From a virus (lineage: Duplodnaviria; Heunggongvirae; Uroviricota; Caudoviricetes): a stretch of DNA of 63,878 nucleotides. How positions within the stretch are numbered: the stretch's first letter is position 1; each line of letters begins with the position of its first letter. The stretch covers positions 64,001-127,878 of IMG/VR virus record IMGVR_UViG_3300010429_001387; one strand, 5' to 3'. A model generated the notes under the pieces. That model did not search any database and had not been told where the DNA came from. It was given only the letters and a program-made list of their open reading frames with translations. This document shows positions 30,256 to 47,215 of the stretch, one piece after another. A program made the translations under genes and the position numbers.

Positions 30256-30957
30256 CTATCTCCATTTTCTGTGATATCGAACAATACCACCTTTCATAAT
30301 CTTTCTTGGTCTACTAAGAGGTATAGGCTGTGGTTCTCCCGGAGTTGTTTCATACGTTGGAAGTGGTCCTTTATTAACAACCGAATTTCGTGCAGCACGA
30401 GAAGCCTGATAGTGTCGAATGACTGGATTTTCCACATCAGACATGTAATCAAAAATTGTGCAGTATTCATCCGGTAGAACATGAAATGGGTATTTTCGAA
30501 GGATTGACCACAATGCTACTTGATCCCACAATTGTCCAGCATTTGTACACATTTTAATCCACTCATCGATGATTGTGTACACTGTATTATTGTTTTTGAA
30601 ATACAAAGTGCCTGACAATAATTCTTCTTTGCGATTAGGGTGTCCTCGTTTTGCATGATCTAGGATATGTGCAGCTACATTGACTTCCGGACGTGCATCC
30701 AATATATGAAATAAATTTGGATACTGTAAAAATTCCGCATCGGCGTCAACATAAACAATTGAATGTGGATTGAATTGCTGCAACATATCTTTCAAGAAAC
30801 GAGGTTTATATTGCACACCCTCATACCAACTGTTGAAAGCATTAACTGGTGTTATGTGATATGGTATTTCAAATTTTCGCAAAGAAGTGATTAATCGCTT
30901 GACTTCTTGTTCATAGACTGTGTTCTTACTATAGTAAGCAACAACAATGAAATCCAT
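30256..30957 (-). CDS. GT-A glycosyltransferase (nucleotide-diphospho-sugar transferase-like)
   Basis: YKPRFL, VYVDADA, LLSGTLYF, WDQVAL, IRHYQASR. Confidence 0.75.
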   Translation of the reverse strand: MDFIVVAYYSKNTVYEQEVKRLITSLRKFEIPYHITPVNAFNSWYEGVQYKPRFLKDMLQQFNPHSIVYVDADAEFLQYPNLFHILDARPEVNVAAHILDHAKRGHPNRKEELLSGTLYFKNNNTVYTIIDEWIKMCTNAGQLWDQVALWSILRKYPFHVLPDEYCTIFDYMSDVENPVIRHYQASRAARNSVVNKGPLPTYETTPGEPQPIPLSRPRKIMKGGIVRYHRKWR

Positions 30958-30960
30958 TTC

Positions 30961-31797
30961 TCACATCTCCTGAATTTGTTGTGGCAAAGAAGGAATATGT
31001 AATTGATTACAAATATCACTAACCGACTTTAAAGCTCTGTTTGTATATGATCCTGATTGAACTTTATCAATAGTTAGATTCAAATTAAATTTACCATTCA
31101 ACATTTGCAAAAGTTCATATTTTGTTACTTGTTGAGGCGAAAATACATGTGTTAAAGACGGTTCCCACAAATCATTTTCAATGATTTGAACACAAATCTT
31201 GCCATATTGTTTGGTTGTAATACCATTCCAAATGTGGTCAGAAAATCCTCGAACTGTATTTCCCCTTTGAGATTTAACCCAAGCAATCAATGAAGCATCT
31301 TTATGAATTTCCTCACCAATAATTGAGGTACGGATGACCATTGCATTTTTTGGCTCACCCAAAGATTTAGATTGACCATATAAATCCGTTGCATCATGTT
31401 TATCATATTCATCATAAGGTCCAAACTCACCTGAAAACACACAATCAGTTGTAATATGAATAAGCTTTGCACCAACCTTTTCACAATGATTTGCCAGCAG
31501 ATGTGGAAATACAGAATTAATATAAATTGTGTTGGCAGGACCAACTTTCTCAACAAAAGGCTTAATGACTCCAATACAATTAATTACATAGTAGCCTTCT
31601 TTAATCAATCTCCAGTTTGGTGGAGTTTCAGCATCTAATTCAAACGAATATATGGGACGTAAAGGAAATTTGGCACATGTTAAATCATATGAACTTCTAC
31701 GGGAAGTTAAAATCGGCTTATATCCAGCAGTAATAAATTGTTTGGTAACCGCATTGCCCAACATCCCGGATGCACCCAATATAATCACTTCATTCAT
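30961..31797 (-). CDS. RmlD/WbvR-like NDP-4-keto-6-deoxyhexose reductase
   Basis: GASGMLG, VINCIG, HITTDCVFSG, YGQSKSLGE. Confidence 0.88.
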   Translation of the reverse strand: MNEVIILGASGMLGNAVTKQFITAGYKPILTSRRSSYDLTCAKFPLRPIYSFELDAETPPNWRLIKEGYYVINCIGVIKPFVEKVGPANTIYINSVFPHLLANHCEKVGAKLIHITTDCVFSGEFGPYDEYDKHDATDLYGQSKSLGEPKNAMVIRTSIIGEEIHKDASLIAWVKSQRGNTVRGFSDHIWNGITTKQYGKICVQIIENDLWEPSLTHVFSPQQVTKYELLQMLNGKFNLNLTIDKVQSGSYTNRALKSVSDICNQLHIPSLPQQIQEM

Positions 31798-31903
31798 TTC
31801 TTTCTCCTGTTCGTAGGATCATAAATATCACACAAAATACACGCCACAATTGCAGCAGCAACTATTATAACAATATCTAATCCAACAAGTGTTATCAAAC
31901 CAC

Positions 31904-32455
31904 TCATCGGTATTCAATGCTCCACAAATCTGCACCTAAATAATCCCAATCCATACGAATGTCATCACCAGTACTTTCTTCCAATGTTTTATCTGAAAAG
32001 AACTGTAAAATGGTTCCATCCGTTATATTCATGAAGCCATTAAAATTTCCTGCTGGAATTTTCAAAATCATTGGATGCTCATATGTTAAAATGGTTTTAG
32101 TGATGTTTAATTTTGCAAACCTATCATTAAAAGCAGATAAGGCATCTTCCTCGTCCATACGGTCATCATCAACTTGTTCTTCTAACAAATCAACGTCCCG
32201 TTGCAAAACATTCACATCCTGAATTGAAACTGTACGAATTAGTGCTGTGCCAGCAAGCACCGTCACATATTTTGTCTCCTGTTGATGCCCATGCCAAGCT
32301 CGAACAAAGAACTTACCATGATTTCTCACAAGATATGTTCGCTTGATATTTCGTTCTACAAAATTAAAATCATTATAGAACATCAATGAACCACGATCGT
32401 CAACTGAAAGACCACCTTGAATTGTTTCCATAAGTAAATTCCTAACTAAATCCAA
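31904..32455 (-). CDS. RmlC-like cupin NDP-sugar epimerase
   Basis: DDRGSL, VRAWHGHQQE, IPAGNFNGF, DDIRMDWD. Confidence 0.8.
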   Translation of the reverse strand: MDLVRNLLMETIQGGLSVDDRGSLMFYNDFNFVERNIKRTYLVRNHGKFFVRAWHGHQQETKYVTVLAGTALIRTVSIQDVNVLQRDVDLLEEQVDDDRMDEEDALSAFNDRFAKLNITKTILTYEHPMILKIPAGNFNGFMNITDGTILQFFSDKTLEESTGDDIRMDWDYLGADLWSIEYR

Positions 32456-33396
32456 CGTTTGTAAAGCTGTTCGATCGCTGCTTGATTACTATATATGGGA
32501 TCCGCAGGGTTTTTAATGCGTGCTTCTTGGATCACTAATGCTATTTGTTGAATTCCTTCTTTTAACATCCAGGCTGGTTGCCATCCCAAAGCATCCCATT
32601 TTGCAGTAGATACTCGATAGTTACGTTGATCTTCATAACTCATGTCAACTTTTTCAACGACACACCCAGGAATAAGATCTTGGATGGCATGAGCAATTTC
32701 CCAAATTCGAGCATTTTGACTACTTAAGTTGTACAACCCTGAAATGCTGTATTCCAATCCATGTATAATCGCTCTAGCAACATCTCGCACATGCAACAAA
32801 GGACGCCATTGATCACCACCAAATACAGTCAGCTTCTCTCCACACACTGCACGCTTAGTTAGAATGTTCACGACCAAATCTAATCGGATGCGTGAATGGG
32901 CATCTCCAAGACCATATAGCGTCCCTAAACGGAAGACCAGAGCATCCGGACGATTTTTCAAAATGTATTGTTCCGCTTCAAGCTTAGTAGATGCATAAAC
33001 TGAAAGAGGATTTGGTGTTGATGTTTCGTCAATTAAGTCATTGTTAACACCGTAAACACTGCATGTCGACATGTAAATTAACTTGCCTTTAAAATTATCT
33101 ACAATCCATTTTACTGCATCGCAATTAATTGATTGTGTTAAGAAAGGATCAGCAGCACACGCTCCATCTCCCACAATCGCTGCTAAAAGCACTACATTTT
33201 TAAAGTGAGGAAGAAGTTTAGAAAGTTTTGGCCGATCTCGAATATCCCCATAAATGAAGGGAACTTTTTTCATGAATCGTGTTTCATAAGCAAGATTATC
33301 ATAAACAGTTGGCCTATAGGCTAAATATTGTAATTGGTCCGTAAGATATCCACCGATGTACCCACAACCTCCCAAAACTAGAACACTTTCATCCAT
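32446..33396 (-). CDS. NAD-dependent NDP-sugar epimerase/dehydratase (extended SDR)
   Basis: GGCGYIG, STCSVYG, YASTK, RLDLVVN. Confidence 0.88.
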   Translation of the reverse strand: MDESVLVLGGCGYIGGYLTDQLQYLAYRPTVYDNLAYETRFMKKVPFIYGDIRDRPKLSKLLPHFKNVVLLAAIVGDGACAADPFLTQSINCDAVKWIVDNFKGKLIYMSTCSVYGVNNDLIDETSTPNPLSVYASTKLEAEQYILKNRPDALVFRLGTLYGLGDAHSRIRLDLVVNILTKRAVCGEKLTVFGGDQWRPLLHVRDVARAIIHGLEYSISGLYNLSSQNARIWEIAHAIQDLIPGCVVEKVDMSYEDQRNYRVSTAKWDALGWQPAWMLKEGIQQIALVIQEARIKNPADPIYSNQAAIEQLYKRWI

Positions 33397-33436
33397 AATC
33401 CTTTCTCCTCAACCCTTAAATTTAAACATTTCTTTT

Positions 33437-34286
33437 TTAAAAAAAATCTTTTATAGACATATCCATAACTTTGTGATAGTACAATGCATCCTGCCAAAGT
33501 TCGTCTAGTGTTTTGCCTCGAGCAACAGTTTTCTCTTCAAGATATTCAAATGTTTGAGGTTCATTGTCTTGATTAAACCATTCATTTTCACTTGTTTTAT
33601 ACCAACCAAGAATCAAGAACTTTTCAGATGTGTGCTCAAATTCTACAATACGAGCTTCATCACATTTGAAGAGTTTGATTGCTGCTTGAATAAGAATATG
33701 CGATTTCATGATTAAAACCAATGCGTAAAAACTATATATTTTAATTCGTTTCCGGATATTTGCTCATTCATCATTTCTGACATTTTTAATGCTTTTAAAG
33801 CTTTTATAAAATCATTGGGCATTTCTAACTCAGTTATTGGCAAACCTTCATATGAATTTGCAACAGAAATTACCTCACCAATCACAACATAACGACTATT
33901 CATTCCATCAAAAATAATGCAAAAATCTCCTGGCTTCACTTTACGATGGTCCATATAGTATTCATGTTTTTCATACCACTCTTCTGTAAATTTTTCTTTG
34001 TCAAATTCAAATTTTTTGCCCAAAACAACGAAATGTTGAAAAGAAGTACTCATATTATTCCTCTTTGAAGCGTTTAATTGCTGCTTTAATAAGACTATGT
34101 GATTTCATTTTTATCTTCCACAGGACAATTTAAAGCCTGAAAACAGGCAACCATGTGCTCTTCAGTATCCCAAGAATCAGTAAGAGGATCATAATAATTC
34201 ATGGCTAAAGCATATTCATATGGATCTTCTGCTCCGCACTTTAAACAAAATGCTCCAGGCCATCCAGACCATCTATGTATTGCCAT
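33437..34286 (-). other. three small phage hypothetical ORFs (33437-33721, 33712-34053, 34095-34286)
   Basis: tiled ORFs inside the sugar cluster. Confidence 0.55.
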
Positions 34287-35149
34287 TAGAAAAAACTCCT
34301 CTTCAAATTATCTTGACTTGGTAACGTTTGATGTGCCACAACTGAAGCATGTAACATTCGAGGATCATTATTCCGAAATCGCATGCACGCTCTACGATGC
34401 AAATCTGCGAATCCTGCAAATGGAAGTTCTCGGATAGTCTTCGGTTGCACATAAATAGCAACATTTTGAGCTTCTGATGAGGTGTCAAAATATCCCAGAT
34501 CCTTCCAAGCTTTAGTAAAACCAACTTCAATTCCAATGTCTTTGTAATTTTTCATACCATAGGAAATTAACTTTTGAAAGGTCACAGTTTTTGTAATTGC
34601 AGCAGGGAAACATAGGTAATACTCGTCTGCGATTTCAGGACCTTTAATCAAGAATTCATCATCATTAACCTTAATCCAATTGTGGTACAGGTTAACAAAT
34701 TCAAGATACTTTTCTTTATTAGGTCTCTCAACAAATCCGGGAACATTAAGAAGATTTTCTTGAAATACATGAGTGTTGTAATTTATCCACCCAATATTAT
34801 ATCCATCAAATATAGCTTTCAGCATATATTTAGAGGGAATTCTATTAATAAGTACATGATCTTCGCAGTAGAAAAGATATTCCTCATTAATTAACTGGAG
34901 TCCCCGGAGAATGTTGTTGAGCATGGTTCTATTTCCACTGCAAATGCCTGACGTCACTTGCCAGCCAAAGTCGTGAGCCCAATCCTCCAAGGCATGTTCA
35001 CAGCCATCAATGCCTGGTTGTAAATCAATTGAAAGAACCTTGTTATCAAATGTTTGGTCGTCTTGTTCTTCAATTGATTGCAGAAGATTTAATGTTCTCT
35101 CTAAACGATGTGGAAGATTAGTTGTAATAACTAAGCAAGCAAAACTCAT
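34286..35149 (-). CDS. putative GT-A (GT2-like) glycosyltransferase
   Basis: N-terminal LVITTN...RTLNLLQSI; EEYLFYCEDH. Confidence 0.55.
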   Translation of the reverse strand: MSFACLVITTNLPHRLERTLNLLQSIEEQDDQTFDNKVLSIDLQPGIDGCEHALEDWAHDFGWQVTSGICSGNRTMLNNILRGLQLINEEYLFYCEDHVLINRIPSKYMLKAIFDGYNIGWINYNTHVFQENLLNVPGFVERPNKEKYLEFVNLYHNWIKVNDDEFLIKGPEIADEYYLCFPAAITKTVTFQKLISYGMKNYKDIGIEVGFTKAWKDLGYFDTSSEAQNVAIYVQPKTIRELPFAGFADLHRRACMRFRNNDPRMLHASVVAHQTLPSQDNLKRSFF

Positions 35150-35150
35150 A

Positions 35151-35915
35151 TTAATCCTCTTTCAGATTTCCATACTTAGCATCAAATTCATCATTAAATT
35201 TCTTCCATTCACGCCGTTCTGTACGAATATCAAGACAAACATTATGAAGCAAAGCATGCAGGTCAATGAAATCATAGTCAGGATTTTGTGGACATTCTTT
35301 TAGATTAGGATCTTTTCGCCAATTAAATCTTGGTTCATTCCATTTCCTAAATGGTTCAAAATCCATAAGAATGTGGAATAACGCTTTATTGATATCACAC
35401 AACGATAATGAAGCAAACCAACAGTCACCATAATCCTTCCAAGAAATATCTTTGTGAAGACAAGCATCTGCATATCTTATAACAACTGCTAAGTCTTCAG
35501 GACAAGCATATGGGGATTGTATAACAGCATATTTTGCCAATGCTCCTAGAATATCAGTTAAAGAAGTAATTTCTTTAGTTGACCATTCAGGTTCATTCGC
35601 CAATCGTTCATACGTGGGAGGCATGTTATTAATTACTGCTGCTAACTCATTCATACAAGCAGGATTAACAAAACCTTCATCGGTTAATAGTGGTTGGCTT
35701 AGGAATTCAATATCCTCAAAATTGTCCATTTATTTCTCCAAAAAACCTTTGCATTTACCATCAGATCCAATTTTAATCACGGAAGGCATTACACAACAAT
35801 TTCGATAATTAAAAGAACAATTTCGATTTTCACATTTAATCTCTGGCATATCCCAATCTCTTGAATATGGATGGCGTCCAGATCCAGGACTATGTCGGAA
35901 TGATTTTGTTTCCAT
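35151..35915 (-). other. hypothetical ORFs 35151-35729 and 35730-35915 (Cys-rich)
   Basis: abutting ORFs. Confidence 0.55.
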
Positions 35916-35917
35916 GA

Positions 35918-37003
35918 TTATTTCTCCAGATTTTCAATTATTTCAACAATTTTAGTGGCAGTTGAACCATCCCCCAACCAACTTGAATCAATTTGTCGCA
36001 CCCCACCAATAATGTCATCCAACCAGGATAATGATTCACTCCAAGGAGAATCCAAATCTTTCAATAAATATGAACAATCGGCGTCCATGGACTGAGGACG
36101 TTCTGTAAATTCTCTAGGAACAATAACAGGTGTATTTAACAATGCTGGCTCTTCTTGGGCTGTTCCAGAATCCGAGATCATAAACAAGCTGTTGTATTGT
36201 GCTGAAAGAAATTCTTTGTAGGACATCAAATTAACAGCTTGGATCCGTTCCCCTAACGAAAGGTCAAAATCTTGAATTGCCTGAACTGTTCGCCCAAACT
36301 TCACGAATTTAACTGGAACCGAAAACTCAAATGAGCAGTAATTCGCATATTCTAAAATCTTCTGCAGTCTTTCTCGACTGTGGAAATTCTCTGGACGGTG
36401 TATATCCATCAAGATAAAATCACCTGATTTCTTAGTGGCAAAAATAGGGGGAGTTAATGGTGAGCAAACTTCAACAATTGTATTCCCAACGATATGAATT
36501 CCCTTATCAGGAATGGCTTCCTCAAGCAAATTCAACATATAATCAGGATGATATACAAAATGTAAATCAGAACAATGATCACACACAATTCGATTAGTTT
36601 CTTCCAACATTCGACGATCATATGATCGCATACCTGCTTCTATATGTGCAATTCGAAATCCTGCTTTCTTCAACTCAACTGCACAGGTTACTGAATTACT
36701 GTCGCCAAGGAATACAATTAAATCAGGTTGCAAGTTCTGAGCGTAAATTAAATCTAACAAAGCAATCGTGACTTTTGAAGATGTTATGTAGGCAGGTTGT
36801 CCTTTTTTACCACAACCTAAATTGAAATCAGGTTGACGAATATTTAATTCTTGAAAGAAAACATCCGAAAGCATCTGATTAAAGTGCTGTCCGGTATGCA
36901 CAAGTATATGATTGATCTTTTCAGAAGCATCTAATTTCTTGAAAACCGAAGACATTCTTACAAAATCAGGACGTATACCACTAACAGTCAACACATTTAA
37001 CAT
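35918..37003 (-). CDS. non-hydrolysing UDP-N-acetylhexosamine 2-epimerase (WecB/WbvD/FnlC family)
   Basis: GIRPD, VHTGQH, GDSNS, HIEAGMRS, HRPEN, SDSGTAQEE, TERP. Confidence 0.92.
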   Translation of the reverse strand: MLNVLTVSGIRPDFVRMSSVFKKLDASEKINHILVHTGQHFNQMLSDVFFQELNIRQPDFNLGCGKKGQPAYITSSKVTIALLDLIYAQNLQPDLIVFLGDSNSVTCAVELKKAGFRIAHIEAGMRSYDRRMLEETNRIVCDHCSDLHFVYHPDYMLNLLEEAIPDKGIHIVGNTIVEVCSPLTPPIFATKKSGDFILMDIHRPENFHSRERLQKILEYANYCSFEFSVPVKFVKFGRTVQAIQDFDLSLGERIQAVNLMSYKEFLSAQYNSLFMISDSGTAQEEPALLNTPVIVPREFTERPQSMDADCSYLLKDLDSPWSESLSWLDDIIGGVRQIDSSWLGDGSTATKIVEIIENLEK

Positions 37004-37413
37004 TGTTTTCCTCTTATTTTCTGTTTTAATTCTGAGGTTGAAACACCTTCTGTTCTTGGAAGGAATATCATACGTTTATTATACTTCATCCAAGCAATGC
37101 CTTCCAAATCGGAATCCTTCCAATCATCTCCCAAAACTAAAATATCTGCATTTAACACGAACAATTGTGCAACAGGCAACAGTTCTGATTGTTGAACAAC
37201 TTGATCCACACATTTTAATTCTCTGATAATCTCATATCTTTCTCGATATGGCATGATTGGCATGTGGTGTTTATAGGAATATACTAACTCATCCGTTGAA
37301 ACACCTACAATTAATTTTGTACCAAACATCCTTGCTCGACGAATTATATTCAAATGTCCTATATGAAACAGATCCCACGTTCCTGCTGTATATACTACAC
37401 TCTCGGCCTCCAT
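36997..37413 (-). CDS. TagD-like polyol-phosphate cytidylyltransferase
   Basis: GTWDLFHIGH, LIVGVSTD, GDDW, RTEGVSTS. Confidence 0.88.
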   Translation of the reverse strand: MEAESVVYTAGTWDLFHIGHLNIIRRARMFGTKLIVGVSTDELVYSYKHHMPIMPYRERYEIIRELKCVDQVVQQSELLPVAQLFVLNADILVLGDDWKDSDLEGIAWMKYNKRMIFLPRTEGVSTSELKQKIRGKQC

Positions 37414-39260: not shown

Positions 39261-39264
39261 AATA

Positions 39265-39777: not shown

Positions 39778-39805
39778 ATTGGATTGCTTTTCTCACTATT
39801 ATTTC

Positions 39806-40453
39806 CTATTCAGCAACAACATAATAACGCTGGTTTAATTCGTTAGTCTCACCAAGCACAGCATTGATATTATTCTTTGCTGACCATTGTCTCCAAGCTA
39901 AATTTTCCCCCCATTCTTTTGCTCCTGCTGGATTAGTTTCATCTCTGGGATCCCGGTAGTCATCAAAATAAATTACTAATCCCGGTCGCATCATTGGCTT
40001 AACAAAATCCAAAGCTTGAATTGTTGAAAGATGTATGTCAACATCAATATTCACAAAAATCAATTTTTCTTGCATCAATTTATGTTGCAAATCTCTGGTT
40101 AAAGAATGCTCAAAAAGTCCTTCGATAATTTCAAATCTTGGATCTTCCAAAGGAATTCCACAAATTTCTAAATGTTGCTTCAAAACATCCCTTGGATACC
40201 AAAAACATCCTTTGCCATGGCGTTCAGGAGCCCAGACTCCTGGAGTTTCCGCAGGTAATCCTTCAAAGCTGTCAAATCCAATCAAATGAGAATTAATTGC
40301 CCAATCCATCATATGTTTAGCTTGCCAACAAAAACTGTGGCCCTGCCCTACCCCAAATTCCAAACACAAACCAAAATCTAAATTCTGGTGTGCTTGGATA
40401 AATGCTTTTTTAAAGATTTCTGTTGGTTCTGGCTTCCATAGTTCCATAAACAT
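39806..40453 (-). CDS. TylF/MycF-family sugar O-methyltransferase
   Basis: LEFGV, GFDSFEGLP, NIDVD, FDDY. Confidence 0.82.
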   Translation of the reverse strand: MFMELWKPEPTEIFKKAFIQAHQNLDFGLCLEFGVGQGHSFCWQAKHMMDWAINSHLIGFDSFEGLPAETPGVWAPERHGKGCFWYPRDVLKQHLEICGIPLEDPRFEIIEGLFEHSLTRDLQHKLMQEKLIFVNIDVDIHLSTIQALDFVKPMMRPGLVIYFDDYRDPRDETNPAGAKEWGENLAWRQWSAKNNINAVLGETNELNQRYYVVAE

Positions 40454-40457
40454 ATCC

Positions 40458-40934
40458 TTATTTACAAGATTCTTTAATCCAATGACCTTTTGAATCTCGA
40501 GGCCAATCCTTCATATCTTCTCGAAGACGATCTTTATCACTCGGATTCCATTCATATTGTTGTGTAAATAACAACGGAAATTCCGATATTTCATCCAATG
40601 AACATAAATTCATGTCTTCTTCTGCAACTAAAACAGGTATATTAAACCAGCCAAATTTAACTTGATAGAAAATATGAGATTTTGTAACTTTCAAATAATT
40701 TGGTTCATAGTCTGGTGATCCATCCCAATCATAGGATACCCCGCCACCAATTCGAACACCACTACTTCTTCGACACAACCCAACAATGCGTCCTATTCTA
40801 GGAGCCTTGAAGAATTCTGGTTCCCAATCAATTTGTGCCTTGTCTAGAGTTCGTTCATGTACAGCCCGAACAATAACCCAATCACCAATATCAAACTTCA
40901 GATCATTAAGCTTCATTTTTGATTGCCTTTCCAA
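40458..40934 (-). CDS. hypothetical phage protein
   Basis: tiled ORF. Confidence 0.55.
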   Translation of the reverse strand: MERQSKMKLNDLKFDIGDWVIVRAVHERTLDKAQIDWEPEFFKAPRIGRIVGLCRRSSGVRIGGGVSYDWDGSPDYEPNYLKVTKSHIFYQVKFGWFNIPVLVAEEDMNLCSLDEISEFPLLFTQQYEWNPSDKDRLREDMKDWPRDSKGHWIKESCK

Positions 40935-41772
40935 TAGTATTTTCTAAATCAACAATACTTCCGATCCGGCAATCCTTTACCCAATCATATGCACCTTTCA
41001 CCATCTTAGTATACTTTTCTGAGGGAAAGGTGTCTAACAATTTTGTTACTGCAGAATACTGTCTTGGCTGATTAATGGAGGGCCAAAACTCCCGAAAATC
41101 AATAAACAATTCTTTAGGTACATACTTTTCAATATCATAGCATCCAATATAAACAGGTACTGTGCCTGCTCGAAAACAATTAAGAATCCTCTCCGTTATA
41201 AAACCTGCTGACCAAAATGAATGATATGAACTTTCGAAACAGGCACAGAATTTATATTCTGAAATTTTCTTAAGATGCTTTTCATGACTATGGTGATATG
41301 GAGCTAATACTGCACCTTGATAACAATCTCCTCCCCACTTCCTCGTACAGTAGACATGTCTTTTTAGAGACCCACTAACATTCTGGATGAACTCATTTCT
41401 CAGCCAGTAGATGTCCCCAACACGTCCTGTTCCATACAAATTGTTTAGTATACATACCCCATGAATCTTATTTTCATAGGGAACAAGCTCCGATAACCTT
41501 TCTGGTGGATTACATCCTAAACATCCGTTGACTAATTTCAAATTCAAAACATGCTTATATTGCTGATAGAATTTCGGATTCCACGTAATGATTGTTTGAT
41601 ATTCACGAATTAAATTAAGGTCCCAATTCTCTGGCATTCCAACATATGGTTCCGCTTGCACTAAAACCTTAAATCCATTTGCAGGTGAATTCATTTTTCC
41701 TGCAACAAAAGATTTAACGTTAAATGCAACTTGAGGGTAAGTATCTATAAGTCGTTGCCAATCTTCAGACAT
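40906..41772 (-). CDS. GT10-like (fucosyltransferase-fold) glycosyltransferase
   Basis: YKFCACFESS...FITERILNCFRAGTVPVYIG. Confidence 0.8.
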   Translation of the reverse strand: MSEDWQRLIDTYPQVAFNVKSFVAGKMNSPANGFKVLVQAEPYVGMPENWDLNLIREYQTIITWNPKFYQQYKHVLNLKLVNGCLGCNPPERLSELVPYENKIHGVCILNNLYGTGRVGDIYWLRNEFIQNVSGSLKRHVYCTRKWGGDCYQGAVLAPYHHSHEKHLKKISEYKFCACFESSYHSFWSAGFITERILNCFRAGTVPVYIGCYDIEKYVPKELFIDFREFWPSINQPRQYSAVTKLLDTFPSEKYTKMVKGAYDWVKDCRIGSIVDLENTIGKAIKNEA

Positions 41773-41783
41773 TTCAAAATTCC

Positions 41784-42050
41784 TTAATCATCCAGCAGTG
41801 GGAACCCAAAACGCTTAAGCATATTTTCAGCAATCTGCCCAGCAACTTCTGGATCAATTTCACTTCTCATAACAATTTGAGCAGCTGTTGCCCAAACTGC
41901 TTCAGCAGCCATACGCTTAAGATGTTCACAATTAGGACAATTTGAGGGATGGGCAGAAACACAACCATTATCTTCTAATTTTGCCATTTTCTTTAACCAC
42001 CTCAAAGAATTTGTCATTTTAAAGCTCATGTGATTTCCTTTTGTAAACAA
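41784..42050 (-). CDS. small hypothetical protein
   Basis: tiled ORF; CPNC. Confidence 0.45.
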   Translation of the reverse strand: MFTKGNHMSFKMTNSLRWLKKMAKLEDNGCVSAHPSNCPNCEHLKRMAAEAVWATAAQIVMRSEIDPEVAGQIAENMLKRFGFPLLDD

Positions 42051-42885
42051 CTTTTGCCATTAAGCAAGTTGAATTGTGTTGGCAATATCGTGTTCCAAAT
42101 GTATAATCCTTTTGGTATTTCTCATTAACCAGGTCATATGGACATTGAATGATTTTTCCACCAATAATGTAGTTCGCAAAATGACATTTGTTGTCAACAA
42201 CACCAGGTAATGTACTCTCAAACACTCCTCGTTTGGAAACATGAATTTCCATGTTTCCATCATATCGAGCAAGAAATTTATGAACCAATTCTTTGTATTG
42301 AAGCACCGGCATTGTTAAATCAGTATCATCAAAAAATTCTTGTCGCGGATTATCAAGTTCTCGAAGGCTGGAAATAAAGAAGACCTTACATTTGAAACAC
42401 TTCTCTGCTTCAAATGCAGTTTGTAACAGATCTTCAACTGTTGTCACACGAGACACCATAAAATTTGCATCAAACCGAATATCGGAATTTTCTATAAACC
42501 TTAAATCTTTGTTTGTTGTGGGGCCATAAAATGAGATTCGAATTTTAGTTAAGGCCAGTTCAAATGATTTGAAATTGTGAAGAAAATATCCATTAGTGTA
42601 AATAGTCGTTTTCAACTGATATTTTCGATTAAGGGCTAGCATTTTTAATAATTCAGGATGAAGCAATGGTTCACCACCTAACAAATTTATTTGTTCTCCA
42701 CCCTCACATACAAATTTAGAAATCGCTCTTTCGTACTCCTTCATTGAAATATCAACTTGATCCTTCATTACTTTGCGAGCAAAACATCCTTGACATTTCA
42801 AATTGCAGCGATTTGTTATAAATATCTGCAATGTGTTCCTTCTTGAGACAGGAAGTTCTTCATATTTGTGCCATGGAAATTTCAT
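42019..42885 (-). CDS. radical SAM enzyme with Cys-containing C-terminal (twitch/SPASM-like) region
   Basis: CNLKCQGC, GGEPLL, YTNG, QCPY. Confidence 0.85.
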   Translation of the reverse strand: MKFPWHKYEELPVSRRNTLQIFITNRCNLKCQGCFARKVMKDQVDISMKEYERAISKFVCEGGEQINLLGGEPLLHPELLKMLALNRKYQLKTTIYTNGYFLHNFKSFELALTKIRISFYGPTTNKDLRFIENSDIRFDANFMVSRVTTVEDLLQTAFEAEKCFKCKVFFISSLRELDNPRQEFFDDTDLTMPVLQYKELVHKFLARYDGNMEIHVSKRGVFESTLPGVVDNKCHFANYIIGGKIIQCPYDLVNEKYQKDYTFGTRYCQHNSTCLMAKVVYKRKSHEL

Positions 42886-43718
42886 TTACCTTCACCCCAA
42901 TTTTTATTCTTGTTGCGGAAATAATCATCCGGACTTTTCTGAATAAACAATTGCCTCATCTTCACTAAATTGTCCGGTGTACAATCCCCTGCTCGTGGAT
43001 GCCAAGGATGTATTGCACAGCATGAATAATCCGGCACTAAATCAACTCCAATGTTATACAATCGACAAAAAACGTCGCTGTCCTCAAAACCATAATGTGT
43101 ATATTCCTCGTCATATCCTCCAATATACGGAAATAGAGAGGTTTTACAAGCAAATGCATAGTGAAAATAAGATGTGGGATTTACTCGACCATCAGCCCCT
43201 ACAATAATTTCCTTAAGTTCATAGACATTACGAACAATAGGCATTTCAATCAATCTGGTTGGAGCACATGTTTCAATGATCTTTTGAGGACCAGCTTGTT
43301 GCATTTGTTGAGTTTGTTCTTCATTAAGAACATAGATTTTTCCTGCTCTCCACGCATTGCGAAAATGGATAGTGTTGTAAATGAAATCACCCTCAATTAC
43401 AACTTCTCCATCCTTTTGGCAAACTAATTCACTCTCACATCTCTTGAGAAAATAGTTCCGAACAAATGCCCCGTTACGCGGAGATTTATCATCCCGAATG
43501 ATGTTAAAGTATCGAACATTTTTACCATGATACTTCTGCCAATCAAAAGGTATTCCATCATTCCCAATTACAATAAGATAATCCTTCGGATCAATTTTAG
43601 TTTTGATTTGATTGATCGAGAATTCTGTTAATTCTGGATGATTAAAGTTAGGCATAAAAACGACAAGCTTCTTAGATCGCGTTTCTGCCCAATCAAAATT
43701 ACATCCGACTTGGAACAT
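42882..43718 (-). CDS. GT2 / GT7-C-like glycosyltransferase
   Basis: GGYDEEYTHYGFEDSD; HPWH. Confidence 0.8.
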   Translation of the reverse strand: MFQVGCNFDWAETRSKKLVVFMPNFNHPELTEFSINQIKTKIDPKDYLIVIGNDGIPFDWQKYHGKNVRYFNIIRDDKSPRNGAFVRNYFLKRCESELVCQKDGEVVIEGDFIYNTIHFRNAWRAGKIYVLNEEQTQQMQQAGPQKIIETCAPTRLIEMPIVRNVYELKEIIVGADGRVNPTSYFHYAFACKTSLFPYIGGYDEEYTHYGFEDSDVFCRLYNIGVDLVPDYSCCAIHPWHPRAGDCTPDNLVKMRQLFIQKSPDDYFRNKNKNWGEGK

Positions 43719-43727
43719 TAGAAATCC

Positions 43728-44585
43728 TTAAACGGAAATATTGTTGTTAACTCTGTGGATTAACCAACTAACAATATTGTCAAATTTGTGATAGTTTTCT
43801 TCTGTGACTTCTCTTTGGTACTGCCCTGCCGATATAGCACCCCCATACCAATGTATCCCAATAACTACCGGATTTCGAACAACCTCAGCCATAAATCGAC
43901 CAGCTGGTTCTACACAAATATGGTTTGCGGCTCTTGTTGGATAAACCATATTATTGTCAAAATTAAACAGATTAGGGTCTTTATCAAAATGAGCATCATT
44001 CAACAATGTTTTATAGAATGTTGATCCAGCTGATTGATATTGAGTTGTATCTAAATTTTGCTTAACCCCATCAAATAACATCCGATAGTATTTATTCCCA
44101 GGAGCACCTGCTAAAAATCCAATGGCGTGGAATTTCGGATCGGACCCAAACTGTGTCGGACCACCACGTCGCCAACAAAAATATGCTTGATGATTTGTCT
44201 GCTTCAACGTATGGGTTAATGGACGAAAGAACAGGATATCACTATCACTCCAAAGCCCACCAACAGTTGAAAGCAAATACAATCGGATAATATCAGATTT
44301 GATGACTTCTGAAAGATCATTTGAAAATCCTATTGACTCCATATCAAACGGAGCAATTTTCACACCCAACGATTCCAAACGATCAGAATAGTCTTTTACC
44401 CCGTCAAACCCTTCTTTGTTTTCCCATGTGGTCCAAGTCTGTTTAGTTGTTAATTGTGTTGGAACATATAGAACAACTTTCCAATCAGGATTATATTGAA
44501 GGAAAGACTTGAAGCACATATATCGGAGATATGGCACTACTGGTGCTCCCCAATATAAGAATGCTACTTTTGGTATATTTTTCAT
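43728..44585 (-). CDS. GT32-like DXD glycosyltransferase
   Basis: IPKVAFLYW; SDIIRLYLLSTVGGLWSDSD. Confidence 0.8.
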   Translation of the reverse strand: MKNIPKVAFLYWGAPVVPYLRYMCFKSFLQYNPDWKVVLYVPTQLTTKQTWTTWENKEGFDGVKDYSDRLESLGVKIAPFDMESIGFSNDLSEVIKSDIIRLYLLSTVGGLWSDSDILFFRPLTHTLKQTNHQAYFCWRRGGPTQFGSDPKFHAIGFLAGAPGNKYYRMLFDGVKQNLDTTQYQSAGSTFYKTLLNDAHFDKDPNLFNFDNNMVYPTRAANHICVEPAGRFMAEVVRNPVVIGIHWYGGAISAGQYQREVTEENYHKFDNIVSWLIHRVNNNISV

Positions 44586-45021
44586 ACTACTTTACCCACC
44601 ATTTGATTTTCACTTTCTCTACCATAAATCTTGTATATGTGCCGGGAAAGTTTGATCTTTATTTACACCACGTTGACACTCACAATTTACAATTCTATTA
44701 CCACATATTACAAATTGTTCATCGTGACAAATGGGACATCGTATGGATTCAATTTTAGTTCCGTCTGATTTCTCACCCATTATTTAATCTTCTCCTTTTA
44801 CACATCATATATGTTGAAAGGGGAACATGCCCTTTAAGAACTTGAATCCACCACCAAGCCCAGTATCTTTTCAATTGCTTCATGATTTTTCCTTTTTCCA
44901 AAGTCGCTGAACTTCACTATTAAACTTTAGTTTAAAATCAACATCAAATTCTTCCCAATATCTATTCAAAAACCAAATCGCTCGAAATGTGTTGATTTTC
45001 ATCCATATCCAGCCCAACATA

Positions 45022-45792
45022 TTATTTTCTCCAATCCCAAGATATTTCACCATGAAGTATTTGATTGTACAGTATACGATTTTTCTCCCACAAAGGACAC
45101 CCTCCTCGTAAAGCGGGATTTTTTGAATGCCATTGATGTACGACAAAAGCTTTTTCAACAGGAGGAGTTTGAATTTGCAGTTTCAATTTTTTGATAGCAT
45201 TAACAAAAGCATTGTCCTCAAAACAATAACCATTTGCAAATCGTTCATCAAAACCACCAATTCTATTTAAATTGTACTGGGTTAAGGCTGAAGTAAAGTG
45301 ATAATTAGTCGAATTATGCTCAGGATGATGATACCACATTTTGGAATTCATAGCATAAATTTTTGACCAATCTTTAATATCAGATATACACATTTTCTCA
45401 AAACATTCTTTAGTTGAAGCATATGCTGCAAACGTTAAATAATTTTTATCTGTTACTTGTTCACGAACAATGTCAACAACTGGACCAATGTGAGCACATT
45501 CTGAATTCTGAATTATAACAATATCACTAACAACGGATTTGAATCCAATATTGTAAGGTGAGCCAGGATTGACCCAATGTTTGTTTTCTGGTTTGATATA
45601 AATCAAAAATCCAGGAACTTTTGCTTCTTTAATCACTTGTTTTGCAGATAAATTAGAATCGCTTGCATCATCTACAACAATTATTTGTAAATCGGAAGTG
45701 TTAACATTATTATAATATTTTATTGATTTCAGCGTGTTTAACAACTGAGCAGGACGATTATAATATGTCATGACTATCGAAACCGAACGCAT
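45022..45792 (-). CDS. GT2 glycosyltransferase
   Basis: SIVMTYYNR, IVVDDAS, GGFDERF..GYCFEDN, HQWH. Confidence 0.85.
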   Translation of the reverse strand: MRSVSIVMTYYNRPAQLLNTLKSIKYYNNVNTSDLQIIVVDDASDSNLSAKQVIKEAKVPGFLIYIKPENKHWVNPGSPYNIGFKSVVSDIVIIQNSECAHIGPVVDIVREQVTDKNYLTFAAYASTKECFEKMCISDIKDWSKIYAMNSKMWYHHPEHNSTNYHFTSALTQYNLNRIGGFDERFANGYCFEDNAFVNAIKKLKLQIQTPPVEKAFVVHQWHSKNPALRGGCPLWEKNRILYNQILHGEISWDWRK

Positions 45793-46466
45793 TATATATT
45801 CCTGAAATCAACGTATTGGATATAGTCATTTAATCTGCTAATGTGACTACAACTAAAGACATTTATTTTCAAATCCTTTGTAATATAGCTCAAAGCTTGT
45901 TCATATGGAATTAAAAATTCCTCCAACTTTTTATTATACGTTTTATGATCTCGAGGCACATAATCATGATGTGAATGGGTTTCCTTTCCTCGTGTACAAA
46001 AATCTAACCCAAACAAATATATATTCTTATATCCTAAAATAACTGCTAATTGCAAAGCTGCATAACCTGATTCGCTACCACAATGAAACTCTTCAAAATT
46101 TCTTCCAATACCTCCATAAGCATAGGTAAATACAATTTTATCAAACAAGGTTAAATCATATATCAATTTATGCTGTCGATCTTCAATATGATGATCATCA
46201 ATTATATGTAGACGATCTCCGCTGAATGTTACAACAAAGATTTTTTCGGCAAGGTGATTTTGAAATTTTGTTCGGTTGGCGTGACGTTTGGAACTAACAT
46301 GACTTTTATGTAGCCATGTACCATCAATCGTTATGAAATACTTTGCTTTAGGTAATCGAAAAATCGATTGGTTTATTGCAATAGAATCTTTGTCATCGAA
46401 GATTTTATAGTTAAATTCTGGGGATAGAGATGGCCCTGAACCAACTATAAAACAGGTGTCTTGCAT
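45792..46466 (-). CDS. DUF115 / Maf-like (sialyltransferase-type fold) protein
   Basis: FIVGSGPSL, IAINQ, SGYAALQLAVILGYKNIYLFGLDF...HSH. Confidence 0.7.
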   Translation of the reverse strand: MQDTCFIVGSGPSLSPEFNYKIFDDKDSIAINQSIFRLPKAKYFITIDGTWLHKSHVSSKRHANRTKFQNHLAEKIFVVTFSGDRLHIIDDHHIEDRQHKLIYDLTLFDKIVFTYAYGGIGRNFEEFHCGSESGYAALQLAVILGYKNIYLFGLDFCTRGKETHSHHDYVPRDHKTYNKKLEEFLIPYEQALSYITKDLKINVFSCSHISRLNDYIQYVDFRNI

Positions 46467-46477
46467 TTTCTCTTTCT

Positions 46478-47215
46478 CTATTTGTTTAAAAACGTTTTAA
46501 TATCAGATTTTGGGTAGTTTTGCAACAAACTTTTTTCACTTAAGTTTATAACTTGGATTCCTAAATTTTCAAAACCCGAAGCAAACGCATCAATTGTATT
46601 TCGAAACTTAATTAACTTCTTTGCTAAATTCTCGGGATTTTGATTTTTATATCCATCATGAAAATGGGTTTTGTTTTTCTCAACGTAAAAATCAAATCCT
46701 AATAATCCAATTCGTTTACTCCCCAAAGCGGCTGCAAGCATCATGGCTCCAAATCCAGAATTGTCTCCTGGATAGATTCCCATGCTTAAATCAAACGAAA
46801 ATCCCTTTTGTGGAAGAGCATTCACATAGTAAACATCTGAGGCAAATCGCTCTTGTTTGTGGCGAACAAAAACCTTGATACCTCGATAGGATTTCCAAGC
46901 AATATATATATCATGGTTTGGTTTGTCCACACCTGGGTCATAATTAACTAAATCAAAAAACACATTATCCATCGCATAGTTTATTTCTGCGGGATAGGTT
47001 AAAAACGATTTGTTAATTCCAATTACTTTAGATCCTTGTAGCCACCGCCAATCAAAAGCACTAAGACTTGGGCCACCACCAATAATAAAACAACTTTGAT
47101 CTTGCCAACAACCTGAATTCAATATTTTGGTAATTGGTTGGGCCAAACATTCTTTATGCACCAATTTAACTTGGGATACCTTGCTACCTTTGGAATGATT
47201 AATTAGATTTCCCAT
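46478..47215 (-). CDS. DUF115 / Maf-like protein, second paralog
   Basis: FIIGGGPSL, IGINK, NSGFGAMMLAAALGSKRIGLLGFDF...HFH. Confidence 0.7.
   Translation of the reverse strand: MGNLINHSKGSKVSQVKLVHKECLAQPITKILNSGCWQDQSCFIIGGGPSLSAFDWRWLQGSKVIGINKSFLTYPAEINYAMDNVFFDLVNYDPGVDKPNHDIYIAWKSYRGIKVFVRHKQERFASDVYYVNALPQKGFSFDLSMGIYPGDNSGFGAMMLAAALGSKRIGLLGFDFYVEKNKTHFHDGYKNQNPENLAKKLIKFRNTIDAFASGFENLGIQVINLSEKSLLQNYPKSDIKTFLNK

Follow-up and report, generated by a model that had tools for sequence, protein, structure and literature searches.

A conserved cluster of soluble glycan-assembly enzymes beside the receptor-binding protein genes of a T4-like phage

What does a T4-like phage build with about 20 soluble sugar-making and sugar-transferring enzymes encoded directly 3' of its receptor-binding fibre genes, and on which acceptor does it build it? 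We addressed this question for an uncultured wastewater phage in a window of 63,878 nucleotides (positions 64,001 to 127,878 of IMG/VR record IMGVR_UViG_3300010429_001387; the record is 128 kb long, with a CheckV completeness estimate of 82%). Open reading frames and Pfam and NCBIfam searches define a glycan-assembly cluster of about 25 closely spaced genes on the minus strand, at 30256-47215, whose enzymes are all soluble (Table 1). Each enzyme class listed in the preliminary description of this DNA is present there.

Table 1. Features of the glycan-assembly cluster and of the adjoining tail genes (window coordinates)
Position	Strand	Feature	Basis
30256-30957	-	Nucleotid_trans (GT77-like) glycosyltransferase, last cluster gene	Pfam PF03407, borderline (22.4 bits vs cut-off 22)
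30961-31797	-	RmlD-like reductase (SDR)	Pfam; matches RmlD and MAT2B
31904-32455	-	Cupin	Weak matches, below Pfam cut-offs
32446-33396	-	SDR of nucleotide-sugar remodelling triad	Pfam; best solved relative 6vo6, E 6.7e-40
34286-35149	-	GT-A-fold glycosyltransferase, virus-specific family (viral GT-A), fourth member of transferase core	Structure neighbours and motifs
35151-35729	-	Tad5-like protein, inserted in cluster, not a glycan enzyme	Pfam PF25190, E 6.9e-22
35918-37003	-	UDP-HexNAc 2-epimerase, WbpI/CapG-like branch	Pfam Epimerase_2, E 1.3e-62
36997-37413	-	Small cytidylyl/adenylyl-transferase	Pfam
37395-38078	-	Classical SDR of phospho-alcohol module	Pfam
38072-38632	-	DUF2284 protein of phospho-alcohol module	Pfam
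38598-39260	-	LicD	Pfam
39265-39777, 39806-40453	-	Two Methyltransf_24/TylF-type sugar O-methyltransferases	Pfam; orthologues in relatives
40906-41772	-	GT10-like (fucosyltransferase-family) glycosyltransferase	Pfam PF00852, E 3.6e-10
42019-42885	-	Radical SAM enzyme	Pfam Radical_SAM and Fer4_12
42882-43718	-	GT-A glycosyltransferase, C-terminal part Glyco_transf_7C-like (GT7C-like), transferase core	Pfam PF02709, 25.3 bits vs cut-off 23
43728-44585	-	GT32-like glycosyltransferase (Caps_synth / Gly_transf_sug, DXD sugar-binding region), transferase core	Pfam
45022-45792	-	GT2-family glycosyltransferase	Pfam PF00535, E 2.8e-9
45792-46466	-	GT42-like transferase B, paralog of A (~28% identity)	Pfam sub-threshold and profile
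46478-47215	-	GT42-like (CstI/CstII-type) transferase A, start overlaps last fibre-like stop	Profile and Foldseek
47215-48375, 48387-49652	-	Two receptor-binding-protein (RBP) paralogs	BLASTP, PHROG, Atlas
49664-52450	-	Conserved tail protein (410 aa) and BNR/sortilin-type propeller plus Ig-domain protein (516 aa)	Pfam, PHROGs

The genes are tightly packed, with gaps of at most 15 nt at 18 of 24 junctions and overlaps at 11. The stop codon of the last fibre-like gene and the start codon of the first GT42-like gene share a TAATG overlap, and a second TAATG joins GT42-like gene B to the GT2 gene. From the fibre genes to the cluster, neither sigma-70-like promoter matches nor terminator-like hairpins exceeded shuffled expectation, and no late-promoter motif was definable in the phage. 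The two RBP paralogs share their N-terminal ~265 residues (38% BLASTP identity over residues 1-268) and differ in their C-terminal domains. Weak PHROG virion and baseplate matches, low-TM Atlas neighbours drawn entirely from phage tail or receptor-binding families and an all-beta AF2 model of low confidence give a weak indication that these are fibre genes. Next to them, the 410-aa and 516-aa proteins are peripheral baseplate or fibre components with synteny kept in relatives, and PHROGs confirmed baseplate wedge, hub, tube and sheath genes upstream.

The first two transferases of the cluster had been described as Maf/DUF115 proteins, and although two such genes do lie where that description placed them, the label fits less well than CstI/CstII-like. 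Both fall below Pfam cut-offs; the matches of transferase A are MptE-like and CST-I. A profile of eight orthologues (alignment A2) matched the CstI/CstII sialyltransferases over their full length (E about 1e-6), and a Foldseek search with a model of transferase A (pTM 0.74) ranked CstII first (9e-8) and the Maf structure 5mu5 14th. Because profile and structure searches both favour CstI/CstII over Maf, we use the term GT42-like. GGGPS and G-x-D-F...T-H-x-H motifs are conserved in these proteins.

The relationship to Maf nevertheless bears on the acceptor, since the GT42/DUF115 superfamily includes the Maf flagellin glycosyltransferases. The glycan might be placed on a host protein such as a flagellin, pilin or S-layer precursor or a translation factor, on a small molecule or glycolipid, or be released as a free, decorated oligosaccharide with a role during infection. 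The solubility of all cluster enzymes and the presence within the cluster of a radical SAM enzyme and a DUF2284 protein of unassigned role would suit such an acceptor, but the GT42-like proteins comprise a catalytic domain only (224-245 residues, vs 666 in the solved Maf chain), Maf profile matches are weak (E 0.2) and no neighbouring gene indicates a particular host protein or metabolite. We consider an acceptor of this kind unlikely.

Six further glycosyltransferases are of GT-A/GT10 type, and the GT32-like, GT7C-like, GT10-like and viral GT-A enzymes form a four-transferase core. The viral GT-A has no Pfam or NCBIfam match; in the Atlas its structure neighbours belong to GT2 and HtrL_YibB clusters, an E-D-(H/D) motif is conserved (alignment A1), and orthologues occur in two phages outside the clade described below, L104 and L106. 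The GT10-like gene is the best conserved of the core (62-66% identity inside the clade and 43-46% in L104 and L106). Identity of the GT32-like protein is 56-58% in the relatives G001, L103 and L108 and 45% in the distant L104; the GT7C-like and GT2 genes are likewise conserved among relatives. The borderline Nucleotid_trans gene has orthologues in G001 and L103, and PF03407 is found at the same position in two more relatives.

From the remaining enzyme families we infer the probable sugar chemistry of the pathway. The SDR, cupin and RmlD-like reductase are conserved in relatives as a complete triad. The SDR's best solved relative, 6vo6, which we take to be Cj1427 of the Campylobacter jejuni capsule-heptose pathway, is followed by a next-best match of only 62 bits. 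An oxidase/epimerase/reductase scheme has been described for that pathway (PMC10680097). Among solved structures the 2-epimerase scores highest with WbpI-type enzymes (168 bits) and CapG (146 bits), vs 72-100 bits for MnaA/WecB enzymes. The cytidylyl/adenylyl-transferase matches RfaE domain II (84 bits) and TagD (80 bits) in NCBIfam, both under cut-off. Methylation and phospho-alcohol decoration of the glycan, as previously suggested, are plausible from these families. The phospho-alcohol module (36997-39260) is, however, absent from G001, L103 and L108, every relative with comparable DNA, and is therefore accessory to the present phage rather than part of the core. The radical SAM enzyme has only generic, N-terminal NCBIfam matches and an orthologue in L103 only (59%). 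The Tad5-like gene, absent from the compared relatives, is likely an anti-Thoeris gene; ThsB co-purifies with Tad5 (PMC13728456).

No cluster protein contains a hydrophobic 19-mer scoring at least 1.8, and such segments number fewer than four in every ORF of the 128-kb record. The reported absence of a flippase, Wzy, ligase or membrane-bound glycosyltransferase therefore holds for the DNA at hand (an estimated 82% of the genome), and the lack of transmembrane proteins in the cluster and of multi-pass proteins in the record indicates that the product is assembled on a cytoplasmic acceptor. Nor did the 128-kb record yield a hexose-1-phosphate nucleotidyltransferase, CMP-sugar synthetase or nonulosonate synthase, so the donors must derive from nucleotide sugars of the host and the pathway, contrary to the earlier proposal, is not near-autonomous.

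The missing membrane machinery had also been read as arguing against a host target. Extension of LOS or LPS core, however, needs only soluble or peripheral inner-leaflet transferases and host export, so the lack of flippase, Wzy, ligase and initiating transferase fits a host target equally well. The soluble transferases could thus lengthen or cap a glycolipid of the host on the cytoplasmic side of the membrane (LOS or LPS core on lipid A, an Und-PP-linked O-unit or capsule, or a teichoic-acid intermediate), with host flippase and export moving the product outward; the altered surface would block superinfection or keep progeny off debris. Several key enzymes point this way, their nearest solved relatives acting on bacterial surface glycans: the GT42-like pair most resembles CstI/CstII, the LOS sialyltransferases of C. 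jejuni, the SDR's best match is presumably a capsule-heptose enzyme, the closest matches of the 2-epimerase are O-antigen and capsule enzymes, and GT10 is the family containing the Helicobacter LPS fucosyltransferases. With no CMP-sugar synthetase of its own, the phage would draw on the host's pools of CMP-Kdo or nonulosonate. Analogous islands of pelagimyophages and cyanomyophages have been proposed to modify host O-chains or cell walls (PMC7029224; PMC12801897). Against a host target, the cluster is translationally coupled to the RBP genes, the phage itself encodes no membrane component of any kind, and each of a dozen phage transferases would need to fit a lipid-linked acceptor specific to its host, presumably in different hosts. 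We regard modification of the host envelope as a serious though doubtful possibility.

Comparison with relatives also bears on the acceptor. In at least seven related phages from metagenomes, a 14-gene core occupies the same place, in the same order, just after the two RBP paralogs. The recurring order, taken from G001, L103, L108, L109 and three contigs (gene tables only), is [Ig/propeller protein]-[RBP x2]-[GT42-like x2]-GT2-GT32-GT7C-(MT)-GT10, and synteny persists even where identity of the viral GT-A has fallen to about 40%. Between the present phage and G001, cluster proteins are 36-67% and baseplate proteins 39-55% identical. Divergence like that of the baseplate is in keeping with a core trait passed on together with the particle genes and not with a hypervariable host-derived island, and it counts against a host-envelope target across so deep a clade, since published host-recognition islands are hypervariable. 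The cluster is vertically inherited within a T4-like myovirus clade from wastewater and sediment. On the constant core, tailoring sets differ by lineage: LicD and a nucleotidyltransferase in the present phage, and sulfotransferases with APS kinase (PAPS supply), or a sulfotransferase with PIG-L and a formyltransferase, in relatives. In the distant T4-like phage L104 the four-transferase core lies between NrdD and an NrdG-like gene, with replication genes alongside, and in L106 no structural genes lie beside it in the 15.7 kb compared. Fibre adjacency is therefore a trait of one clade, reflecting one evolutionary event, and the nucleotide-metabolism setting in L104 is compatible with a host-envelope target.

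The same setting recalls DNA hypermodification, in which an oligosaccharide built on a modified genome base would evade restriction. Phage transferases akin to LPS and teichoic-acid enzymes add mono- to tri-saccharides to 5hmC, and such clusters can adjoin structural genes (bioRxiv 10.1101/2023.12.21.572611); RB69 and DLP3 carry poly-arabinosylated 5-hydroxycytosine (PMC13326640). The downstream side of the present cluster adjoins dCMP deaminase and RNR genes and a nucleoside deoxyribosyltransferase-like gene, and in L104 a thymidylate-synthase homologue and a UDG-family gene lie near the core. Yet the 128-kb record (estimated to be 82% complete) contains no ThyA/ThyX-type thymidylate-synthase homologue, Tet/JBP dioxygenase (a search run without a positive control) or C5-cytosine methyltransferase, and therefore no known route to a hydroxylated acceptor base. 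Starter genes are also lacking near the cluster in G001, L103 and L108 and in the relatives' gene tables, and a set of eight transferases plus methyl, phospho-alcohol or sulfate tailoring goes far beyond every DNA glycan described. Genomic DNA is thus a most improbable acceptor.

We prefer, tentatively, the reading that the phage glycosylates its own outer tail proteins. Host nucleotide sugars would be remodelled by the C4-oxidase/3,5-epimerase/C4-reductase triad and the WbpI/CapG-type 2-epimerase; about eight transferases (two GT42-like, GT2, GT32-like, GT7C-like, GT10-like, viral GT-A and GT77-like) would then build a hetero-oligosaccharide, which would be O-methylated and, in the present phage, may also receive a phospho-alcohol substituent via LicD. 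The proposed acceptors would be next door: the RBP paralogs lie immediately upstream, and their translation is coupled to that of the first transferase. New particles would thereby acquire a decorated glycan coat peculiar to their lineage. The soluble cluster, its conserved continuity with the RBP genes and the variable tailoring of a constant core favour virion glycosylation, as first proposed; the position of the L104 core among nucleotide-metabolism genes speaks against it, as do the genes of that kind on the downstream side of the present cluster, the surface-glycan acceptors of the key enzymes' nearest solved relatives and the finding that no ORF of the genome carries a Ser/Thr-rich or other repetitive acceptor tag (maximum 10 S/T in 20 residues).

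A precedent for virion glycosylation exists in mycobacteriophages, where transferases of the phage add sugars to capsid and tail-tube subunits (Freeman et al. 2023, as cited in PMC12619734). At the gene level, the giant-virus-like complexity earlier attributed to this tailed phage is not new: fibre-adjacent glycosyltransferase islands have been published for the marine T4-like pelagi- and cyanomyophages, with 13 glycosyltransferases and 22 cell-wall genes in cyanomyovirus S-SCSM2R (PMC12801897), and fibres interspersed with glycosyltransferases in the host-recognition clusters of pelagimyophages (PMC7029224). Unlike those hypervariable islands, the present cluster has a core conserved about as well as the baseplate; what is new is this 14-gene core at the RBP genes, with its lineage-specific tailoring sets.

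The cluster lies directly behind the fibre and receptor-binding protein (RBP) genes (window 30256-47215, minus strand; about 25 genes), and searches with Pfam and NCBIfam bore out the enzyme inventory that the preliminary description had given for it (see table). Its genes are closely packed: 18 of the 24 junctions measure 15 nt or less, 11 are overlaps, and TAATG overlaps are found at the fibre/GT42-like and GT42-like/GT2 junctions. The largest gaps are not empty; two of the three encode Cys-rich or zinc-ribbon-like peptides of ~60 aa, which fall under the ORF cut-off used. The genes for nucleotide metabolism adjoin the cluster directly on its downstream side.

Features in and around the glycan cluster, in order of transcription (window coordinates)
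Feature	Position	Strand	Content or source
Sheath	61701-63323	-	Contractile-tail module (PHROGs)
gp6-like wedge	52988-54721	-	Contractile-tail module (PHROGs)
516-aa protein	50900-52450	-	BNR/sortilin-Vps10-type beta-propeller, C-terminal Ig-like domains
RBP paralogs	48387-49652; 47215-48375	-	
GT42-like A	46478-47215	-	
GT42-like B	45792-46466	-	
Cluster genes, group 1, after fibre-like genes		-	Two GT42-like, GT2, GT32-like (Caps_synth/DXD), Glyco_transf_7C-like GT-A
Cluster genes, group 2		-	Radical SAM, GT10-like, two TylF/Methyltransf_24 methyltransferases
Cluster genes, group 3		-	LicD, DUF2284, classical SDR, small cytidylyl/adenylyl-transferase
Cluster genes, group 4		-	2-epimerase, Tad5-like protein, 287-aa protein (viral GT-A)
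Cluster genes, group 5		-	Extended SDR, cupin, RmlD-like reductase, Nucleotid_trans (GT77-like)
Largest gaps in cluster	44586-44879; 35730-35917; 34054-34285	-	
Tad5-like gene	35151-35729	-	192 aa, Pfam PF25190
Viral GT-A	34286-35149	-	287 aa
Nucleotide metabolism	26230-30252	-	dCMP deaminase, 688-aa ribonucleotide reductase (RNR), nucleoside 2-deoxyribosyltransferase-like gene

The whole virus record is 127,878 bp long (37% G+C), with the window as its second half; it has no terminal repeat and a CheckV completeness estimate of ~82%. Every gene beyond ~26 kb in the window is encoded on the minus strand. The contractile-tail module also includes two tube paralogs and hub and wedge proteins (PHROGs), and the gp6-like wedge is only ~24% identical to the wedges of T4-like cyanophages. 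The cluster had no megablast match among 50,697 phage records, the GT10-like protein had no tblastn match, and the sole tblastn match of the GT42-like protein was to one unannotated 462-kb uncultured phage; no cultured phage was found to be related to the cluster in sequence. Metagenomes of anaerobic digesters and activated sludge from several studies contain the phage itself at no less than 99% identity. Contigs from two anaerobic-digester metagenomes depart from the window sequence at 33449-36046 and 46489-47079. The phage population probably holds alternative alleles or cassettes at the latter interval, which falls in the first GT42-like gene, and probably also at the former, which takes in small ORFs, the genes for the viral GT-A and the Tad5-like protein, and the start of the 2-epimerase gene. 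The Tad5-like gene, flanked by the 2-epimerase and viral GT-A genes and missing from the relatives described below, matches the Pfam family 'Type I Thoeris inhibitor Tad5' (E 6.9e-22) and on this similarity is likely an anti-defence gene parked within the glycan cluster; Tad5 co-purifies with ThsB (PMC13728456).

Two transferases are indeed present where a Maf/DUF115 pair had been proposed, but the Maf label does not hold, and a GT42-like assignment fits better by profile and by Foldseek. A profile built from eight orthologues matched CstI and CstII over its full length (positions 3-216; E 9e-7 to 2e-6), whereas the same profile gave E 0.2 against the solved Maf 5mu5. Foldseek with an AlphaFold model of the protein (pTM 0.74) placed CstII first (E 9e-8, TM ~0.48, with only ~20% identity to CstII in the alignments) and Maf at rank 14. 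G46, G48, P49, G173, D175, T183, H184 and H186 are invariant across the eight orthologues. With the G-x-G-P-S nucleotide loop, the G-x-D-F strand, the catalytic His region and the full-length CstI/CstII match by which we define GT42 membership, the pair is best placed, on profile and model, in the GT42 sialyltransferase-like superfamily; this is membership of the superfamily rather than the family, because the Pfam CST-I score of 22.9 lies below the cut-off of 25. Maf proteins carry acceptor-binding domains on either side of a central GT42-like catalytic domain, and the solved chain 5mu5_A has 666 residues. The phage proteins consist of the catalytic domain only (224 and 245 aa), and their scores for the Pfam MptE-like family (31.7 and 21.9 bits) are under the cut-off of 34.6. 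Identity as Maf flagellin glycosyltransferases was therefore rejected on short length, sub-threshold MptE-like scores and the weak Maf profile match.

The 287-aa protein matched nothing in Pfam, and its profile found nothing significant among PDB sequences. An alignment of five homologues conserves an N-terminal strand and an E-D-(H/D) motif, and the structural neighbours in the Atlas are GT2 and HtrL_YibB clusters that are mostly viral. On this modelled fold and motif we count it as a putative sixth GT-A-type transferase. One of the neighbouring HtrL_YibB clusters has 3,145 members, 99% of them viral, and a second consists of 790-aa viral fusions of HtrL_YibB and TylF/Methyltransf_24 domains, so that transferase-methyltransferase fusions appear to be widespread in tailed phages.

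Among solved structures one, 6vo6, stands far above the rest as a match to the 316-aa SDR (E 6.7e-40, 140 bits over 290 residues; next best 62 bits); we take it to be the GDP-heptose C4-dehydrogenase Cj1427 of Campylobacter jejuni. The cupin has no significant solved relative among PDB sequences. Together with the RmlD-like reductase, these two enzymes would form an oxidase, C3,C5-epimerase and C4-reductase series acting on a nucleotide sugar. The heptoses of the C. jejuni capsule are modified by the same succession of oxidase (C4-dehydrogenase), C3,C5-epimerase and C4-reductase (PMC10680097), whose logic the phage triad would by analogy reproduce. The 2-epimerase scored 168 bits for WbpI-type enzymes, 146 for CapG and 72-100 for MnaA/WecB, and by these scores appears to group with WbpI and CapG, which act on modified UDP-HexNAc, rather than with MnaA/WecB. 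Identity as NeuC was rejected (50 bits versus 177 for wecB). A wall-teichoic-acid module of MnaA and TagD was likewise rejected as the core function, since the 2-epimerase is nearer to WbpI/CapG and the TagD-like gene is accessory.

Neither a hexose-1-phosphate nucleotidyltransferase nor a CMP-sugar synthetase nor NeuB was found in the record. A nonulosonic-acid pathway was rejected on the lack of the last two and because the 2-epimerase does not resemble NeuC. With no donor-activating enzymes encoded, the pathway must begin with nucleotide sugars of the host, whose pools would also have to supply any CMP-sugars that the GT42-like enzymes use; to call the pathway near-autonomous, as had been done, was an overstatement. 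The LicD protein has a Pfam match of 68 bits (cut-off 22.6), the best stretch of which covers only the N-terminal 54 residues, and the small nucleotidyltransferase gives about equal, sub-threshold scores for RfaE domain II (84 bits) and TagD (80 bits). We defined a LicD module as a LicD-family transferase with a nucleotidyltransferase that forms a CDP-alcohol. Judged by these family matches, LicD, the nucleotidyltransferase and the SDR plausibly add a phospho-alcohol to the glycan.

Pattern scans of IMG/VR, run with one protein at a time (fibre-like, GT10-like, GT32-like), had no hits, and a first relative, the 68-kb IMG/VR contig G001, was reached through the RNR downstream of the cluster. 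Look-ups in protein databases with the GT10-like and viral GT-A homologues added six members, namely the contigs L103 (also on a 125-kb contig), L108 and L109 and three contigs known from gene tables only. The synteny check proposed in the preliminary description came out in its favour, with an ordered 14-gene core beside the RBP genes in seven relatives. In G001 the cluster has the same arrangement between baseplate/fibre genes and RNR, and in all seven the order is an Ig or propeller protein, two RBP paralogs, two GT42-like, GT2, GT32-like, GT7C-like, in some cases a methyltransferase, and GT10-like, followed by methyltransferases, the viral GT-A, the 2-epimerase, the SDR/cupin/reductase triad and usually the GT77-like gene. 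Identity of the window proteins to those of G001 is 36-67% for the cluster and 39-55% for the baseplate/fibre genes; with divergence like that of baseplate and fibre proteins, the cluster behaves as part of the core genome of the clade. In the window the first position of this order, just upstream of the RBP genes, is taken by the 516-aa propeller/Ig protein, and Ig or beta-helix proteins are found there in the relatives.

The tailoring genes vary among these phages. The module of LicD, DUF2284, SDR and nucleotidyltransferase, like the Tad5-like gene, occurs in the window phage only, and the radical SAM enzyme is common to the window phage and L103 only. According to the gene tables, other sets take the place of the LicD module in relatives: two sulfotransferases, an APS kinase and a TauE-type membrane protein in one, and sulfotransferase, PIG-L-type and formyltransferase genes in another. 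The pattern is one of variable decoration chemistry on a constant transferase core. Four of the transferases (GT32-like, GT7C-like, GT10-like and viral GT-A) also occur together in two distant contigs. In L104 they lie between a split NrdD gene and an NrdG-like gene, beside gp32, DnaB and a thymidylate-synthase homologue, and in L106 no structural genes are in view; fibre adjacency is thus robust in one clade and not general to the transferase core. The NrdD gene of L104 (L104:1-12300) is split around an adenylosuccinate-synthetase gene, with a UDG-family gene, a radical SAM/SPASM gene and the thymidylate-synthase homologue nearby, directly upstream of the four transferases, and this stretch may be a DNA-modification neighbourhood.

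We tentatively prefer the reading that the glycan goes on virion proteins, which may well be so although we stop short of calling it probable. The coupling to RBP genes, clade-wide synteny at backbone-rate divergence, all-soluble enzymes and the mycobacteriophage precedent argue for it. Against it stand the lack of Ser/Thr-rich acceptor tags in any ORF, the non-structural context of the transferase core in L104 and L106, and the closest characterised relatives of the enzymes, which serve to make LOS, LPS and capsule in bacteria. The virion interpretation of the preliminary description is therefore upheld in its RBP coupling and synteny and weakened by the missing tags and the non-structural settings of the core elsewhere. 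Structure prediction for the RBPs was of little use: the AF2 model had a pLDDT of 52, too low for a fold search, and the predicted complex of the RBP encoded at 47215-48375 with GT42-like A scored 0.00, which has no bearing either way.

No cluster protein has a 19-residue hydrophobic window of 1.8 or more, and no multi-pass membrane protein (an ORF with at least four such segments) is encoded anywhere in the 128-kb record. Nor did the cluster give a Pfam match to the integral membrane components by which we defined an exportable O-antigen or capsule locus (Wzx/Wzy or ABC): initiating phosphoglycosyl transferase, flippase or ABC transporter, polymerase or ligase. Such a locus was rejected on their absence. 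The earlier observation that flippase, Wzy and ligase are lacking thus stands, but it does not serve to exclude a host target, since extension of the LOS/LPS core uses only soluble or peripheral transferases on a lipid A-core acceptor, with export by host MsbA/Lpt. Remodelling of the host envelope by the cluster enzymes is accordingly only slightly less likely than the virion reading. The gene content is compatible with it, all enzymes being soluble and the GT42-like pair being nearest to CstI/CstII, and islands of fibre and transferase genes in pelagimyophages and cyanomyophages have been read, without experiment, as modifying the host surface (PMC7029224; PMC12801897). Nevertheless, the conserved and ordered core is unlike those published islands, which are hypervariable and non-syntenic.

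Glycosylation of phage DNA would call for an enzyme that makes a hydroxylated base, either a thymidylate-synthase homologue or a C5-methyltransferase with a TET/JBP dioxygenase. PF00303 and PF02511 (ThyA, ThyX), PF00145 (C5-methyltransferase) and PF12851 (Tet/JBP) had no match in the 128-kb record, which is ~82% complete, the PF12851 search being run without a positive control, and eight transferases with such tailoring go beyond any known DNA glycan. With these enzymes absent, a DNA target is very unlikely. Other cytoplasmic acceptors are improbable, though less so than DNA.

Returning to virion proteins as acceptor, a deep T4-like clade from wastewater and sediment might, on a reading we hold to be rather less likely than not, coat its own RBPs with a complex oligosaccharide built by a conserved phage-encoded set of ~8 transferases and diversified by lineage (phospho-alcohol; sulfate with a phage PAPS supply; N-formyl), as a phage 'serotype' system.

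The cluster is flanked by the late structural module on one side and by the nucleotide-metabolism genes on the other. The T4 late promoter TATAAATA has zero occurrences on the coding strand of the window, intergenic k-mer enrichment recovered only an early sigma-70-like element and RBS-linked words, comparison of 13 relatives gave no shared motif upstream of sheath/tube genes, and sigma-70 and terminator scans showed no excess over shuffled expectation. No RNA data set was listed for a 7-kb stretch. Seven contigs of 150-280 nt from one activated-sludge metatranscriptome match at at least 99% identity and are spread over the cluster and the RBP gene; they come from an RNA library that may contain DNA and so indicate neither transcription nor timing.

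If the glycan is on the virion, particle glycosylation would extend beyond the few-transferase actinobacteriophages to a multi-enzyme, lineage-diversified T4-like system, with consequences for how hosts are recognised, for the stability of particles, for grazing or immune recognition and for the engineering of phages; a serotype system would be comparable to bacterial O-antigens and giant-virus fibril glycans. If the host envelope is the target, a lytic phage would have a conserved system that rewrites LPS/LOS, unlike the usual variable island. Either way, the two RBPs and 14 core genes are a compact, defined set that can be tested by heterologous co-expression without culture.

At the gene level the phenomenon is already published for marine T4-like phages. 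Zaragoza-Solas et al. 2020 (PMC7029224) described the host recognition cluster of pelagimyophages and cyanomyophages as hypervariable and non-syntenic and read it as modifying the host O-chain, and the large cyanomyoviruses P-SSM2, S-SCSM1 and S-SCSM2R have cell-wall gene sets (PMC12801897). Like the window phage, these are T4-like, mix fibre genes with many glycosyltransferases and nucleotide-sugar enzymes, and have no reported export machinery; GT10, TagD-type cytidylyltransferases, and RmlC-type and NDP-sugar epimerases are held in common. Membership of the hypervariable type was nevertheless rejected: the mix of fibre and transferase genes is present, but 14 genes are conserved in order and content across seven relatives and diverge at backbone rate, only the tailoring modules varying, and the window cluster starts with a GT42-like pair coupled to RBP genes. 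What is distinctive here is this ordered 14-gene core headed by the short GT42-like pair and coupled to RBP genes, with its lineage-specific tailoring modules and with transferase families, the viral GT-A and the short GT42-like pair, that are virus-specific.

To glycosylate their virions, the chlorovirus PBCV-1 and the Mimiviridae encode nucleotide-sugar tailoring enzymes, soluble transferases and sugar methyltransferases in a cytoplasmic, lipid-carrier-independent system, and Megavirus pairs 6-deoxy-HexNAc enzymes with a 2-epimerase. These are eukaryotic viruses, and the likeness is one of gene repertoire, not of demonstrated homology; the phage cluster, which lacks donor-activating enzymes, is less autonomous than their machinery.

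Mycobacteriophage virion glycosylation uses few transferases, and the hosts are Actinobacteria. In Che8, Corndog and Myrna the virions are O-glycosylated, with glycans at the C-termini of capsid and tail-tube subunits (Freeman et al. 2023 via PMC12619734), and these are the only tailed-phage case with measured virion glycans in the literature cited here. In both systems the phage itself supplies soluble glycosyltransferases and methyltransferases, whose genes lie among or next to the structural ones. The window phage differs in having ~8 transferases and sugar-remodelling enzymes and no tagged acceptor, and belongs to a different virus family.

The other close likeness is to the LOS and capsule loci of C. 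jejuni. That species is also the source of the closest solved relative of the 316-aa SDR, if 6vo6 is Cj1427 as we take it to be. Among solved structures, CstI and CstII come nearest to the GT42-like pair, and the SDR/cupin/reductase triad follows the same logic as that of the C. jejuni capsule (PMC10680097).
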